From Octopus sinensis (lineage: Eukaryota), in contig NC_043008.1 of the NCBI RefSeq assembly GCF_006345805.1, forward strand, positions 18,848,001-18,912,000: a DNA stretch of 64,000 nucleotides, read 5' to 3'. Shown piece by piece: positions 1,240-62,897 of the stretch (positions are counted from its first letter, which is position 1; each line of letters opens with the position of its first letter). The notes beneath the pieces were generated by a model that made no database searches, was not told the DNA's origin, and saw nothing but the letters and a program-made list of their open reading frames with translations. The position numbers and the translations under genes are program-made.

Positions 1240-1460
1240 CTTTCATTCTTTTACTTGTTTCAGTCATTTAACTGTGGCCATGCTGGAAAACCACCTTTAG
1301 TCGAACAAATCGACCCAAGAACTTATTTTTTTGCAAGGATAGTTCTTATTCTATCAGGAAGTTTTGCAGAACCCCTAACTTACGGGTACATAACACATCA
1401 ACATCGGTTGTCAAGCGATGATGGGGCAACAAACACAAACACAAACACACACACACATAT
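1240..1460 (-). mobile_element. SINE family B, 3' half ending in its internal microsatellite
   Basis: Matches the tail half of the full copies at 5281-5697 and 20295-20710. Confidence 0.85.
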
Positions 1461-1462
1461 AT

Positions 1463-1520
<58 letters not shown>

Positions 1521-1525
<5 letters not shown>

Positions 1526-1691
1526 GGAGTTTACGAAAGAAAACAAAAGACGAAGACAGGTGGTGTAAAAAACAAACAGATGTATTAGTATAACGCTCAG
1601 GAATAGAAAAAGTCTTTTACGTTTCGAGCCTACGCTCTTCTACAGAAAGGGACACAGAAAAAACAAGGAGAGAAAAAAATGTGCGTAGTCG

Positions 1692-1692
<1 letters not shown>
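1521..1692 (-). mobile_element. PLE-like mini-element inserted in (TA)n, HHR-bearing (family H1)
   Basis: Flanked by (TA)n on both sides; homologous to 5801-5985 and 18141-18335. Confidence 0.75.
1614..1649 (-). ncRNA. minimal type I hammerhead ribozyme motif, A6U core variant
   Basis: Minus strand CUUU-CUGUAGA-A-GAGC-GUAG-GCUC-GAAA-CG-UA-AAAG: stem I CUUU/AAAG, 4-bp stem II, loopless palindromic stem III ACGU. Confidence 0.65.
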
Positions 1693-1727
<35 letters not shown>

Positions 1728-2389
1728 TTAATAAGGGTGAGAGAATTAGATACTAATTTAATAGTATATCTATTCAACACCAAGTGGCCTAGTGCTCCGA
1801 GAAACCTGGATTATTATAATATTTTATAATATATTATTTTATTTTATATTATATATATATATATATATATTCATTTTTTCAAACTAGTCACCATGCCTAA
1901 CCGCTAAATACCACGAGTTTCTTTTTTTCTCTCTGTTTATTTCATCGTGTTACTTTCTGTTTGACTGCATGTGACTATGCGAGATTGCGTGGGCGCATGC
2001 GCGCACGTATGCATGTGTGTGTGTGTCTGTGTGTGTCTGTGTAAACATGAGTCCATGTGAATGTATGCGAAATTATGTGCATATTTATCTATATGGCTTC
2101 CATATTGTGCAACATGTTTATATAGGAAAAGACATTCGTGACGGATTTTCCGCACGTCTCCATGTCAGGAATAAAATAATAAATATACAATAAATAGACC
2201 GAATAAAAGAATGTCTGTTTTTTTTTAATTCTGTTGCTTTTATTCGTTATTTCAGTGTATATCAATGTGACATTGTGTTTCTAATGCAATACACAAATCC
2301 GGATTGCTACAACTAAACTGAAGATCAAATTGTTGACAGATCGAGAGTCAAGCTGTCAATGGTTATTGCAATTTTCCTCGACTACCATT

Positions 2390-2397
2390 ATACATAA

Positions 2398-2430
<33 letters not shown>

Positions 2431-2584
2431 AATATATATATATATACATATGAATGTGTGTATATACATATGAGCGTATATACATATGAATGTGTGTATA
2501 TACACACATATATATATACATATATATACATACACATATACATGCATATATTTAGATTTATATATGCACATATATATATCTATA

Positions 2585-2616
<32 letters not shown>

Positions 2617-2752
2617 CATTTATATGCATATATGTATAGATATATGTACATATGTATGTATTATGCATAAATGTATATATATATATGTACCTGGATATAC
2701 ATATGTATTTGTATATGTGTACATATATACACACACACAAACACATATACAT

Positions 2753-2794
<42 letters not shown>

Positions 2795-2810
2795 ACATAT
2801 ATATATATAT

Positions 2811-2856
<46 letters not shown>

Positions 2857-3020
2857 GTACGTATGTGTGTATATATACACATGTACACAATATTACCGTC
2901 AATATATACATACACATGCACACAAACATACATATATACATATAGATATAAGTGTACACAAACACACACACACACACAAACACAAAGACACACATGCATA
3001 CACTTATATGCACACACCTA
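2390..3020. repeat. compound (TA)n/(CA)n microsatellite
   Basis: Direct inspection. Confidence 0.95.
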
Positions 3021-3361
3021 TTTCTTTTTTAATCTTGTTTGTGGTAACAGTGTTTTTCTATGATTTGTTTGGTTCTTTACATGTTTTTCCCCTTCATTAT
3101 TAAGCACTTTGAAAACGTGAAGCCCAGTTAATTTGTGACAGGATGGTGTTTACATGTATTTACTAATTCATAAACACACAATTATACCTGACACATGGCT
3201 TGTCACTATTCCCCTGCTACCTAAGCTTTTATAATGAATTATTAAAACTTCACATGGAAAACTTTCCTATAGATGTAGCTGTGTCAATTTGGCTTTCTAA
3301 CTTATATGGCTATGTTAATACATTTTTTAAAAACGAAATATGGCTTCATTGAATATATATG

Positions 3362-3406
<45 letters not shown>

Positions 3407-3415
3407 GGATGGATG

Positions 3416-3503
<88 letters not shown>

Positions 3504-3518
3504 TATATATATAGATAT

Positions 3519-3572
<54 letters not shown>

Positions 3573-3627
3573 TGATTGATAGATAGAGAGGTTGGTAGGT
3601 AGGTAGATAGATAGATTGGTAGGTAGG

Positions 3628-3707
<80 letters not shown>

Positions 3708-3728
3708 GAGAGACAGACAGAGAGAGAC

Positions 3729-3759
<31 letters not shown>

Positions 3760-3800
3760 TAGATAGATAGAGAGAGAGAGGGAGAGAAAGAGAGAGATAG
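3362..3800. repeat. (GATA)n/(GACA)n/(GA)n microsatellite
   Basis: Direct inspection. Confidence 0.95.
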
Positions 3801-4129
3801 ATTATTTAAAACTCATAAAGAAACGTATGGATGTGTGTATGTATGTCATGAATTCGTAATAACTACATTTGCCTCAAGGATATTCGCAAATCTTCTCATT
3901 TTTAAGTAAACACAGAAATATATGATGTAACCTTTTAGTAAATCAAAAATGATGTCCAAAAAACATGGCTTCCTTTTCGAAATTACATCACTTCCGTTCA
4001 TGCGAGAAGCTACGAAATCGGTCAAGAGTCCTATACTCCCTGCCTATTCAAATAAATTTGACAAAATGAGCTCAGTTGAAAAAAAATTGAAGAAAAGTGA
4101 AATGAGTGACATACAAAATAGAATCAAAA

Positions 4130-15038: not shown

Positions 15039-15610
15039 TGAGCTGGCAGAATTGTTATCACGCTGCGCAAAATGCTTTAGCGGTATTTCATCGATCCTTA
15101 CATTCTGAGTTCTAATTATTCCGAGGTCGACTTTGCCTTTCATCCTTTCAGGGTCCATAAATTAAGTACCAGTTACGCACTGGGGTCGATGTAATTGACT
15201 TAATACCGATGTATGTCCTTGTTTGTCCCCTCTATGTTTAACTCTTTGTGGGTAGTAAAGAAACAGGTATTTCGTTGAACTTTACATTCTGAGTTCCAAT
15301 TATTCCGAGGTCGACTTTGCCTTTCATCCTTTCGAGGTCGATAATTAAGTACCAGTTACGCACTGGGGTCGATGTAATCGACTTAATCCGTTTGTCTGTC
15401 CTTGTTTCTCCCCTCAATGTTAGCTCCTTGTGGGTAATAAAGAAACAGATATTTCGTCGATCTTTACGTTCTGAGTTCGAACTACGCCGAGGTCGACTTT
15501 GCCTTTTTACCCATTAGACTTGATATGTAGCAATCAAATACAGGGGTTGATAAAATCGACTAGTCCTATTCCACCACATTTCAATCCTTGTGTCTATAGT
15601 AGAGATTATT
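15039..15610 (+). mobile_element. SINE family A tandem trimer
   Basis: Tail-to-G(G/A)TATTTCGT junctions near 15265 and 15447. Confidence 0.9.
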
Positions 15611-28767: not shown

Positions 28768-29387
28768 ATTATATAATTAGGGCTTAGTAAAATAAATTAC
28801 TTTGCCACATACTGAACTTAGTAGAAATAGCAGCCAAAAAAAATTTTGTTAGCATTTCTACTACTTAAAGAAAAATATAATATTTGCTAGATAGACCACG
28901 TGGGTGGAATGGGGAGTGCAGAATTTTACGCCTGCGCATTTTGAATTTGTTGACACTGTTAGTTGGAATGGTTCATCTGAAGCGACAAGTCGCTGATAGG
29001 TAAAGTTCCTTCTTTTTAGTGTTTCCAAATCCAAATTAAGAAATTTTGAGCTGACGAAAGAAATGCTGATTTTATTTGGCTAATCTTGAACGTTGACGTA
29101 CTCAAACGATCTATGTACTTGTGATATTTTTCTGTATTTAACCCCCAAACCTTCGTGAGCTGTCTAGAGTAAACATTATCTGAGAGAAATTTTCTTTAAG
29201 TAGTAGAAATGCTAAGAAAATTTTTTTTGGCTGCTATTTCTACTAAGTTCAGTATGTGGCAAAGTAATTTATTTTACTAAGCCCTAATTATATAATGTAA
29301 TATCTTGAATTCGCATTAAATGGTCCTTTTACATACTGAACACTTGGTGAAATTGATTAATTAATTAATTTTACCCTCAATTGTTGA

Positions 29388-39659: not shown

Positions 39660-40619
39660 GAATGCATGTGTGTGTGTGTGTGTATGTGTGCATAAATAGA
39701 AATAGAGAGAGAGAGAAGATGCCAGAAGTACGAATTACTCGGGAATCGCACAAATATGGAAGTTGAGATGTATCTAAATTTCGGGCTGTAGTTTTAAGCT
39801 TCAAATTTGAAGAAATATAAGGAAGAAATGAACGGATAAATTTTCGTAGTTTATTAAACACGAAGAACAGCATGCTTCATATATGAAAACAAGTTGTTTC
39901 AGAGACGAATAACGTCAAGAATTGTACAAATCTATGAAAAAGTTTTTTGATGACATAAAACAATTGTAACAATACTTGAAATCGTTTTTAAAAGTGAACA
40001 AAGTAAAACAACGTATATTAAATATGTGAAAGCAGAAGTCAGTTTCTTCAAACCGGCCATTTATTTTTCGTTTCTTTACGAAAGAATGTCAAATAACACA
40101 ACATTGTAACAGAAAAATGCATAAACAAAAGAAAATTAGTGTTTTTGTACAAATTGCATATTTCTGTTTAATTTATTAGCGAAAGATTTACGAATAAAAT
40201 GTGAAGTAGAAAATATTAAATGAATATTTATTCGTTTATTTCAACATTTCCTGTATCATCTGCTGTACGTTTGTGCAAGGAGTACATGGCGCTGCTATGT
40301 CTTGTGAAAAAAAAAATGTCGACTAAATGCAGAAATGTTAAATTTCGGAATATTTAGGTTTCTGAGTCGCTGGCATTTCTTAATATTTAACATACTATAT
40401 TCATTGTTTGATATCATGTATCCGAGTCTCCGAGTCTATAAATGAGTAACCAATCTCCCAAACTCCCACACGCAGATACATATGTACATACATACATATA
40501 TACATACATACATACATACATACACACACAACACAACACACACACACACACAATTATATATATATATATATTATATTATATTATATATATATATATATAT
40601 ATATGATATATATATACAT

Positions 40620-41255
40620 AGGCGCAGGAGTGGCTGTGTGGCAAGTAGCTTGTTACGAATCACATGGTTCCGGGTCCAGTCCCACTGCGTGGAACCTTGG
40701 GCAAGTGTCTTCTACTATAACGGGCCGACCAAAGCCTTGTGAGTGAATTTGGTAGACGGAAACTGAAAGAGGCCCGTCGTATATATGTATATATATGCGT
40801 GTGTGTGTTTGTGTGTCTGTGTTTGTTCCCCTAGAATTGCTTGACAACCGATGCTGGTGTGTTTATGTCCCCGTTACTTAACGGTTCGGCAATAGAGACC
40901 GATAGAGAATAAGTACTGGGCTTACAAAAGAATAAGTCCCAGGGTCGAGTTGCTCGATTAAAGGCGGTGCTCCAGCATGGCCGCAGTCAAATGACTGAAA
41001 CAAGTAAAAGAGTAAAGAGTAATATATATATATAGGCGCAGGAGTGGCTGTGTGGTAAGTAGCTTGTTTACCAACCACATGGTTCCGGGTTCAGTCCCAC
41101 TGCGTGGCACCTTGGGCAAGTGTCTTCTGCTATAGCCCCAGGCCGACCAATGCCTTGTGAGTGGATTTGGTAGACGGAAACTGATTAAAGGCGGTACTCC
41201 AGCATGGCCACAGTCAAATGACTGAAACAAGTAAAAGAGTAAAAGAGTAAAGAGT
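40620..41255 (+). mobile_element. two tandem SINE family B copies; the second (41032-41255) lacks the microsatellite middle
   Basis: Second copy jumps GGAAACTGA|TTAAAGGCGG. Confidence 0.92.
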
Positions 41256-41276: not shown

Positions 41277-41696
41277 AAAAGTCACAGAAAGTTTGTATGA
41301 TGAGGCTTATGGTGATATTAGGATCATATTACAACATTATATCATTACAAAATAAATAAGTACCGGTTTCACGATCAAACGATTCTCAACTTATATAGAG
41401 AAAACTTTTTGGATGTCAATAGGACGCCATCTTTGAAAAAAGGGAACAGAAATGGAGCAATATGTCAAGCGGAGCAACTCTTATTTTTTCATGAAGCTCT
41501 TCAGTGTCTTTGCTTCATCTTTGTTCACTTTTGTTTAATAGATTATGTCCTATTGACATCAAAAAAGTTTTCTCTATATAATTTGAGAATCGTTTGATCG
41601 TGAAACCGGTACTTATGTAATTTGTTTTGATGTAAGGAGGTAATATGATCCTAATATCATCATAAACTTTATTATACAAAACTTTCTGTGATTTTT
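41277..41696. mobile_element. inverted pair of PLE-like pseudo-LTRs, arms about 150 bp
   Basis: 41356-41425 pairs with 41547-41616 almost perfectly; 41277-41332 pairs with 41640-41696 imperfectly. Confidence 0.75.
41356..41394 (-). ncRNA. hammerhead motif with U3-A8 covariation (second copy 41578-41616 on plus)
   Basis: AUAAG-UUGAGAA-UCGUUUGAUCGU-GAAA-CCGG-UA-CUUAU: stem I AUAAG/CUUAU, palindromic stem III ACCGGU. Confidence 0.6.
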
Positions 41697-41804
41697 ACAT
41701 GTGTATACAGAACTTTCGATTTTTCACTATATGTATGTATATATATATATATACATACATACATTATACATACATAAATACATACATTATATATATATAT
41801 ATAT

Positions 41805-41839
<35 letters not shown>

Positions 41840-41842
<3 letters not shown>

Positions 41843-42104
41843 GGTCCCGGGTTGAATCGGGGTTGACAACAGTAAATAATGTACTCAATACATAGCAGAG
41901 TAAATTAATTTATTTTATAGAAGGAGCTTCTACAGGACTAGAACTGTTTCATTCAAATGAAATCATCAGGAAGCTTCCTGATGATTTCATTTGAATGAAA
42001 CAGTTCTAGTCCTGTAGAAGCTCCTTCTATAAAATAAATTAATTTACTCTGCTATGTATTGAGTACATTATTTACTGTTGTCAACCCCGATTCAACCCGG
42101 GACC

Positions 42105-42107
<3 letters not shown>
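41840..42107. repeat. 268-bp perfect spacerless palindrome
   Basis: 134-bp arms checked base by base; centre AAG|CTT at 41973/41974; symmetry continues imperfectly into the flanking microsatellites (about 41737-42215). Confidence 0.97.
41972..42022 (+). ncRNA. type I hammerhead ribozyme motif (mirror copy on minus strand, 41925-41975)
   Basis: AGCUUC-CUGAUGA-UUUCAUUUGAAU-GAAA-CAG-UUCUAGUC-CUG-UA-GAAGCU: 6-bp stem I, intact core, stem III ACAG/CUGU, predicted cleavage after A42016. Confidence 0.82.
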
Positions 42108-42149
<42 letters not shown>

Positions 42150-42219
42150 TATATATATATATATGTATGTATTTATGTATGTATAAAAATGTATGTATGT
42201 ATATATATATATATAAAAG

Positions 42220-42563: not shown

Positions 42564-42569
<6 letters not shown>

Positions 42570-42617
42570 TGCAAAATTTCGAAATTAAAATATATACAAG
42601 AAATTGATCCCGCACAC

Positions 42618-42663
<46 letters not shown>

Positions 42664-42724
42664 TATATATTCGTGTGCGGGATCAAATTCTTGTTATATT
42701 TTAATTCGAAATTTTGCAATGTAT
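42564..42724. repeat. about 56-bp inverted repeat around a (TA)n spacer
   Basis: 42564-42620 versus 42670-42724, with few differences. Confidence 0.9.
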
Positions 42725-62104: not shown

Positions 62105-62897
62105 GTTTCCGGTTTTGTCACAAGGCCAGAATTTTGGGGACGAAGGGGTAAGTCGATTAGATCGACCCCAGTTTGTAACTGGTACATATTTTATCGACTC
62201 CGAAAGGATAAAAGACAAAGTGGACCTTGTGGACCTCAGAACATAACGACGGACGAAATGATTCATAGTCATTTTGTCCGGCGTGCAAACGTTTCTTGTT
62301 TCTTTCCTGCACACAAGGGACTACACACAGAGGGGGACAAACATGGACAAACAAACGGATTAAGTCGATTATATCGACCCCAGTGCGTAAATGGTCCTTA
62401 TTTAATCGACCCCGAAAGGATGAACGGTCAAGTCGACCTCGGCGGAATTTGAACTCAGAACGTAGCGGCAGACGAAATACTTATTTCTTTACTACCCACA
62501 AGGGGTTGAAAACAGAGAGGAAAAACAAGGACAGACAAACGGATTAAGCCGATTATATCGACCCCAGTGCGTAACTGGTACTTATTTAATGGACCCCGAA
62601 AGGATGAAAGGCAAAATCGACCTCGGCGGAATTTGAACTCAGAACGTAGCGGCAGACGAAATACTGCTAAGCATTTCGCCCGGCGTGCGAACGTTTCTGC
62701 CAGCTCGGCGACTTAACATGTGTATATATCAGTTTCAAATTTTGGCACAAGGCCAGCAATTCCACAGAAGCAGGTGAGTTGATTTCATCGGCCCCAGTGC
62801 TCACCTGGTACTTGGTTTGAACTCAGAACATAAGACGGGCGAAATGCACCAAAACACTTTTACTGCGTGCTAACACTTCTACCATCGTGTCACCTTA
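62105..62897 (-). mobile_element. SINE family A multimer (about 4 units)
   Basis: Tail-to-GTATTTCGTC junction near 62481, a second junction near 62297, head end near 62712. Confidence 0.9.

Follow-up and report, generated by a model that had tools for sequence, protein, structure and literature searches.

A perfect 268-bp palindrome in Octopus sinensis whose arms resemble the end of a Hydra-clade Penelope-like element

The locus raises the question of how a perfect palindrome centred within a predicted hammerhead ribozyme could have formed. In the window (the whole 64 kb stretch of DNA that was analysed), the palindrome spans 268 bp, with arms at 41840-41973 and 41974-42107 of 134 nt each that are complementary at 134 of 134 positions with a spacer of 0 nt, as first described. 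Its chance expectation is approximately 1e-71, and the window scan found no other long perfect non-microsatellite palindrome in the 64 kb. A further ~100 bp of flank is mirrored (41738-41839 against 42108-42215) with 4 gaps and 1 mismatch, in agreement with the indel-bearing flank mirror reported in the preliminary description. Positions within the element are given as q numbers, with q1 at window position 41974, and the features of the locus are as follows.

41738..41839, no strand: left flank, mirroring the right flank; both outer ends of the mirror lie within TA runs
41840..41973, minus strand: left arm, reverse-complementary to the right arm over its whole length; it carries the tail, which is normally absent from inverted arms
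41971..41976, no strand: axis AAG/CTT, the core AGCT being the start of stem I and the putative 5' end of the element RNA
41974..42107, plus strand: right arm (q1-q134), predicted pLTR end and tail of a Hydra-clade Penelope-like element (PLE)
41972-42022, plus strand: type I hammerhead motif of 51 nt from the motif scan, predicted cut after 42016
41975-41925, minus strand: mirror hammerhead motif from the motif scan
42028..42039 (q55-66), plus strand: TATAAAATAAAT, end point of the short inverted arm of ordinary copies; putative second priming site
42040..42111 (q67-138), plus strand: tail, ending in ACATAT fused to the TA run; putative first priming site
42067, 42079, 42082 and 42091 (q94, 106, 109 and 118), mirrored at 41880, 41868, 41865 and 41856, both arms: four private substitutions
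42108..42215, no strand: right flank, consisting of a TA run, an interrupted TATG microsatellite and a second TA run

Downstream of the hammerhead motif come TATAAAATAAA at 42028-42038, a 68-bp tail and then (TA)n. The order of ribozyme, TATAAAATAAA and (TA)n given earlier therefore stands, with the tail, which had not been separated, now placed before (TA)n. The palindrome is a real feature of the assembly. The public sequencing runs with matches listed numbered 24, all as short-read contigs; none of these contained half of the searched words, and no RNA run was among them. Four runs were compared with the left arm plus 14 flank bases; no contig spans this sequence, and in three of the four the end of the tail is covered by a contig of low depth, with the alleles not displayed.

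The hammerhead motif consists of a stem I of 6 bp, CUGAUGA, a short stem II flanked by U.U, GAAA and a stem III of 4 bp, such that the CUGANGA and GAAA core, three stems, an NUH site and the open stem I of type I hammerheads are all present. The U.U replaces G10.1-C11.1, and among copies with the upstream box discussed below (rows not deduplicated) variation recurs at core position 7 and in loop II. The isolated 51-mer is predicted to fold as a three-way junction. No Rfam family matched the window at the gathering score, and no hammerhead family was among the 67 weak matches obtained at E up to 10; weak miRNA matches were rejected, as they reflect no more than the hairpin. We regard the motif as a predicted ribozyme, recognised by motif and stems without an Rfam model match. 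With its first base 2 nt ahead of the axis, the motif has the axis inside the 5' strand of its stem I, and one 51-nt motif lies on each strand; the earlier claim of an axis in stem I with a complete ribozyme on each strand is thus borne out at the level of the motif.

Judged from sequence, both arms derive from a Hydra-clade PLE and consist of its pLTR end, which bears the hammerhead, and its tail. A genome search with one arm gave 622 candidates, 40 of which were scored, and the arm was 97% identical to 39 other full-length matches among those listed. In the sister copy L031, the same pLTR sequence precedes a 518-aa open frame with reverse transcriptase (RT) motifs including YRDD, followed by a frameshifted GIY-YIG region, which is the EN+ PLE arrangement of a pLTR followed by a single RT and GIY-YIG ORF. 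Among 8,000 scored proteins, 1,624 matched, the best 120 at 40-51% identity. The L031 ORF had no match in a Pfam search and was given no name by a PDB sequence search, and Pfam searches of four homologues yielded a weak RVT_1 match in one. No ORF of the element was found within the 64 kb window. The preliminary description of the locus as a product of retrotransposition is upheld by arms that correspond to the pLTR end and tail of a PLE.

The Hydra clade has been defined by RWK, DKT, CxCX5C, CxxC and CxH motifs, GIY-YIG, (TA)n targets and a hammerhead (Craig et al. 2021, PMC8557442). The octopus family shares with it an RWK-like motif and DKT (RWR and SDKT in the N-terminal part of the L031 translation), CxCX5C, CxxC and CxH (CNCPDKTTC in 6 of 11 single copies, CDLC and CMH in 11 of 11), a C-terminal GIY-YIG, a hammerhead in the pLTR and a preference for (TA)n targets, with TA runs at both insertion ends. 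No CCHH motif was seen by eye. These motifs, together with visible similarity to the Hydra-1_Obim protein, suggest placement in the clade. Per the supplement of the same paper, Hydra-1_aJap has U and U around stem II, as in the octopus family, while Hydra-1_Obim has a different hammerhead and belongs to a different family. Unlike the clade as described there, the octopus family has a microsatellite-like 3' UTR of ~2.5 kb and a tail of ~70 bp, not 30-40. The family was not found in the portion of that supplement searched, where two short nucleotide probes matched no Hydra entry; we take it to be a new family of a known clade, and the structure of the window copy is likewise known, although its symmetric form is rare. 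The family is large: the tail end joined to TA has 3,082 exact matches in the genome. The ~2.5 kb 3' UTR is visible at ~1400-3900 of locus L032 as microsatellite-like TA, TG and TATG sequence, so some apparent host microsatellite is element-borne. A 401-aa frame of another Hydra-like endonuclease (CNCICASECPL, YIG, CQLC, CIH) lies at 2870-4075 of L132.

Two other element types were rejected. Non-LTR retrozymes are head-to-tail tandem monomers with a hammerhead in each (bioRxiv 10.64898/2026.07.22.740005), whereas this locus is head-to-head with two units. A self-propagating palindromic (MITE-like) element was dismissed because junctions vary among near-identical copies and the window alleles are unique.

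PLEs are known from published work to have inverted pLTRs, a tail on one side and palindromic junctions (PMC8557442, PMC3846280, PMC4209133), and hammerhead pairs on opposite strands have been noted (PMC4209133). The exact 30-nt centre of the window palindrome is common to 231 loci, and the prediction that other copies would share its axis is thereby confirmed. We sampled 49 of these loci from the first 50 listed: 48 have a long arm with its end at q134-138, and 45 a short arm with its end at q58-70. Stubs are thus usually lopsided, at ~66 + 138 bp, and 0 of the 49 are symmetric, which argues against copy-back into the target at insertion, as earlier proposed, being the rule of the family. Double-tail palindromes of similar span number six at five sites, window included. 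We also drew a sample without selection for junction type, comprising the first 80 tail ends listed on contig C1 with one tandem neighbour skipped, and 46 of these 80 have an inverted arm within 800 bp. The family thus shows the anatomy of EN+ PLEs, in which a 5'-truncated pLTR is inverted and a tail is present on one side (Arkhipova et al. 2013, PMC3846280; Craig et al. 2021), with a head-to-head palindrome in both and the tail on only one arm of ordinary copies. It differs from the published elements in that the whole insertion consists of two pLTR ends and one junction position dominates; the window copy departs further, with a tail on both arms and a mirrored flank.

Ribozyme cleavage was considered as the cause of the axis and rejected, since the predicted cut lies 43 nt away and the junctions there amount to 16 loci in which an arm ends at the predicted cut, joined through stem I, and 9 with the axis at a second AGCT, against 231. 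Both kinds of junction can also come from deletion between repeats. Of the 12 loci L181-L192, in which an arm stops at the predicted cut, 9 have the tail-bearing arm as the shortened one; this pattern is possibly a trace of in vivo cleavage, or of deletion between repeats. Direct target duplications between TA runs were observed in L042 and L050, well over 100 bp in the former, which suggests widely staggered cuts. Target-site duplication was rejected as the source of the mirror, these duplications being direct and not inverted.

The position of the axis may reflect the start of the element RNA. In the 80 unselected copies the long arm extends upstream past q-30 in 31 and stops at q-29 to q-3 in 2, at the AGCT boundary in 24, at q2 to q45 in 15 and further into the element in 8; for this tally, 8 alignments that crossed the axis by chance and 3 copies with one-base losses were reassigned by hand. 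This spike with a thin upstream side is as given by a template with a hard 5' end, beside a second, read-through class of template. All 10 reference copies have a TATA-like box, TATAAAT, at q-30, which places it 29 nt upstream of the first base of AGCT; as these copies were selected by a pattern containing the box, only its spacing is informative. Four of the 80 (L201, L206, L256, L271) have both arms reaching AGC(T) with a few extra bases between them, so the boundary is independent of palindromic annealing. A G precedes AGCT at 6 of 10 informative ends (9 of 10 if G before AAGCT is counted), a small, hand-picked set open to microhomology, compared to 3 of 95 copies whose upstream sequence is normal. 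In full-length insertions of L1, copying of the cap is marked by an additional G (PMC11702581). From these DNA features, we lean slightly towards the view that the axis AGCT marks the capped start of the element RNA. Against it, an exact axis fits a blunt join at q1 too. A splice acceptor as the boundary was rejected, since insert-bearing arms keep AG and have no common upstream exon. Because Penelope of D. virilis has a TATA-less internal promoter (PMC2377424) and an intron that ends at the start of helix I (PMC4209133), a link between start site and stem I would not be general.

Whether one or both target strands prime the copying bears directly on how the arms arise. Twin priming in L1 gives a 5' inversion with little duplicated sequence, unlike the octopus family, where both primers would copy the same 5' segment and yield a palindrome. 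In common with L1 would be a second target strand that primes on the RNA, microhomology at the inner joint and the extra G at a full-length 5' end (PMC11702581). The PLE protein PAc (Poseidon) cuts and extends both target strands in vitro and has two RT start sites on the RNA, which bound the tail (Frangieh et al. 2024, PMC11167929), and the conserved outer ends of the octopus stubs at q138 and ~q66 fit two PAc-like start sites in this arrangement. AT-rich targets are also common to both systems; the PAc start sites lack homology to the target, whereas the octopus-family ends both abut TA-like bases of the element. The portion of that paper examined gives no explanation of an inverted arm.

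Among the 80 unselected copies, 8 have an inverted arm whose 5' limit lies upstream of that of the long arm (11 were flagged and 3 dropped as indel artefacts), and in three of them, L203, L247 and L278, the arms do not overlap. In L044 (G000:C1:76370637-76373666), the inverted arm at ~1513-1627 alone carries 7 A>G changes on the sense strand, as expected of an A-to-I-edited RNA template, which hints that edited RNA was reverse-transcribed at least once, at this one locus. There is no genome-wide A>G excess: 221 arms together carry 128 private changes, of which 19 are A>G and 23 are T>C.

The preliminary description had explained the palindrome by snap-back at insertion, in which the cDNA folds at AGCT and copies itself, usually stopping at the TATA stretch and here continuing through the tail into the flank. 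This would give identical arms and a mirrored flank in one event, palindromic junctions have been read as self-priming (Arkhipova et al. 2013, PMC3846280), and L1 ends can self-anneal into foldbacks (PMC11702581). Subfamily alleles are usually common to both arms, with agreement in 202 of 211 diagnostic comparisons, as snap-back predicts as well; twin priming would then need the same RNA or donor for both arms. A short arm that is not contained in the long arm could, moreover, come from later deletion across the centre. Since the arms agree so often and later central deletions could mimic non-overlap, snap-back keeps real weight. Nevertheless, it leaves unexplained the arms with sequence absent from their partner (8/80, three without overlap), the extra bases between two AGCT-reaching arms (4/80) and the A>G cluster confined to one arm, and it does not readily give the arms of L054, which differ at subfamily site q118; for the window copy it needs a four-allele donor without any other copy left, and a hairpin primer with zero spacer would presumably have a loop of at most 2 nt. 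As the origin of the window copy, we consider snap-back at insertion unlikely. The self-complementary AGCT axis of the earlier proposal holds, and its self-copying step is weakened by the non-contained arms, the extra bases and the one-arm cluster. That both target strands prime (twin priming) is in our view probable, and we favour, somewhat less firmly, two target-primed cDNAs that run off the capped RNA end and anneal over snap-back.

The window copy is set apart from this family norm by the four private substitutions, present on both arms. The four alleles occur together at no other locus in genome searches with patterns over the sites that allowed one mismatch, and singly they occur in 0/79, 0/80, 1/80 and 0/79 copies of the unselected sample. 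None of 77 sampled copies has more than 3 private tail changes, in a sample that required an exact match at q119-140 and so favours young copies. With four such changes, the window copy does not bear out the suggestion that it is very young. As the arms share four alleles found together nowhere else and ~100 bp of flank is mirrored, we judge it a little likelier than otherwise that the copy was made symmetric after insertion.

Template-switch tracts in reporter assays are short, and the tract in the window copy, at 70-170 bp, would be longer. Template switching that perfects an imperfect palindrome is a known type of mutation (PMC3820800), and here likewise the arm identity of an imperfect inverted repeat would have been extended. 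Mirrors also occur under other circumstances. At 42567-42721 of the window, ~500 bp away, unique sequence devoid of PLE sequence is mirrored over 53 bp (94%) on either side of a TA run, the only such mirror among 86 TA runs scanned in the window. In L232 (~493-904), an ordinary lopsided stub, 36 bp of unique flank are mirrored at 100%. A flank-mirror scan found 1 in 132 loci, which is a lower bound, as TA runs were masked, the window itself was missed and some loci were fetched twice.

Taken together, the reading that we prefer, with slightly more confidence than doubt, is that of a head-to-head Hydra-clade PLE stub in a TA microsatellite, formed by twin-primed cDNAs annealed at AGCT and later symmetrised by a template switch. 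One target strand would prime at q138 and the other at ~q66, a step that we hold to be fairly likely. With the RNA starting at the A of AGCT, priming on the first RNA unit would copy only ~140 nt, and both cDNAs would end in AGCT; they would run off the RNA start and then anneal through these self-complementary ends. We incline modestly towards this second step, and to a similar extent towards a third, in which the tail gathers four substitutions, after which a nascent strand folds back on the 66-bp stem, copies the tail and ~100 bp of flank, and rejoins at a TA run. Alternatively in this last step, a pre-existing flank mirror may have served as the guide, with only the tail being copied. The arms are more perfect than the flank mirror, a difference that is unexpected from a single recent switch unless the gaps are slippage or consensus errors, and a lost or unassembled donor with the four alleles is an alternative to late symmetrisation. 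With the upstream TATA-like box and the ORF start lost, the stub is predicted to be a dead end.

The copy could instead have been symmetric from birth, through twin priming in which both strands started at q138 or in donor read-through flank. Symmetric birth does happen, as indicated by L054, whose arms are of different subfamily type at q118, and by L058 and L059, whose flanks are unmirrored; the six double-tail palindromes at five sites are also in its favour. For the window copy, however, four shared private alleles would need a vanished donor or later conversion, and the mirrored flank is left unexplained. Copies that end at q138 do not contain the downstream ORF start, which PLE protein needed in vitro (PMC11167929), and would thus be poor donors. 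We regard birth in symmetric form as improbable.

Quite improbable, too, is an assembly or long-read fold-back artefact, in which the true locus would be an ordinary 66/138 stub with its left side derived from turned-back reads. Read errors would fit the combination of perfect arms and small gaps confined to the TA-rich flank, and the symmetric site L138 has suspicious-looking nested mirrors of 174 and 455 bp. However, the mirror stops after ~240 bp with unique sequence beyond on both sides, none of the 49 other exact-axis hairpins of the same assembly has been symmetrised, and the short-mirrored stub L232 and the PLE-free mirror at 42567-42721 also occur, albeit in the same assembly. At 2033-4254 of L138 (G000:C3:19844000-19849000), the nested mirrors comprise two tandem double-tail stubs and a double-short stub, with flank mirrors identical at 99% (174 bp) and 96% (455 bp), reflecting either an inverted-triplication-like event or an assembly artefact.

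For the family at large, we tentatively propose, with somewhat less than even confidence, that the axis is the genomic footprint of the capped 5' end of PLE RNA, that the inverted pLTR and one-sided tail stem from two fixed priming sites with the cDNAs joined end to end, and that stem I supplies the AGCT at the start. If this is true, more than 3,000 insertions in one genome are a record of where the RNA starts and where it is primed, of ribozyme cuts made now and then, and even of template RNA edited from A to I, and the formation of PLE inverted repeats becomes directly testable. The formation of tandem and inverted PLE structures is listed as unresolved by Craig et al. (2021, PMC8557442). 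Self-priming has been suggested in print (PMC3846280), while the junction counts presented here point to two primers and a fixed RNA start. Such a model for PLEs was not found in the literature searched, which covers few subscription papers, so it may already be published. Taken singly, the palindrome is no more than a small curiosity, a predicted dead-end stub from an element class already known, and the family is the more useful object; it scatters hundreds of short perfect hairpins over the genome that could be substrates for editing or repair.

If the stub were read through, its RNA would be predicted to form a 134-bp hairpin that blocks the ribozyme fold. In folding predictions the long hairpin reaches -237 kcal/mol and the ribozyme -162 kcal/mol, so that the hairpin wins by ~75, consistent with the competition between the two anticipated in the preliminary description. 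The RNA of 41960-42040, upstream bases included, is likewise predicted to fold into the palindromic stem and not the ribozyme. Because the upstream bases have this effect, the fragment earlier suggested for a cleavage assay should be shorter.

Other repeats lie in the window. Just left of the palindrome, a 150-bp inverted repeat (41292-41441 and 41531-41680) is 86% complementary with its halves 89 nt apart, possibly an older mirror or a MITE. Dispersed SINE-like repeats, some as tandem pairs, are found at 40600-41250, 15082-15506 and 62295-62665, and these may be octopus-type SINEs. Finally, a 99-bp inverted repeat with 99% identity is present at 28776-28874 and 29190-29288, its halves ~315 nt apart.
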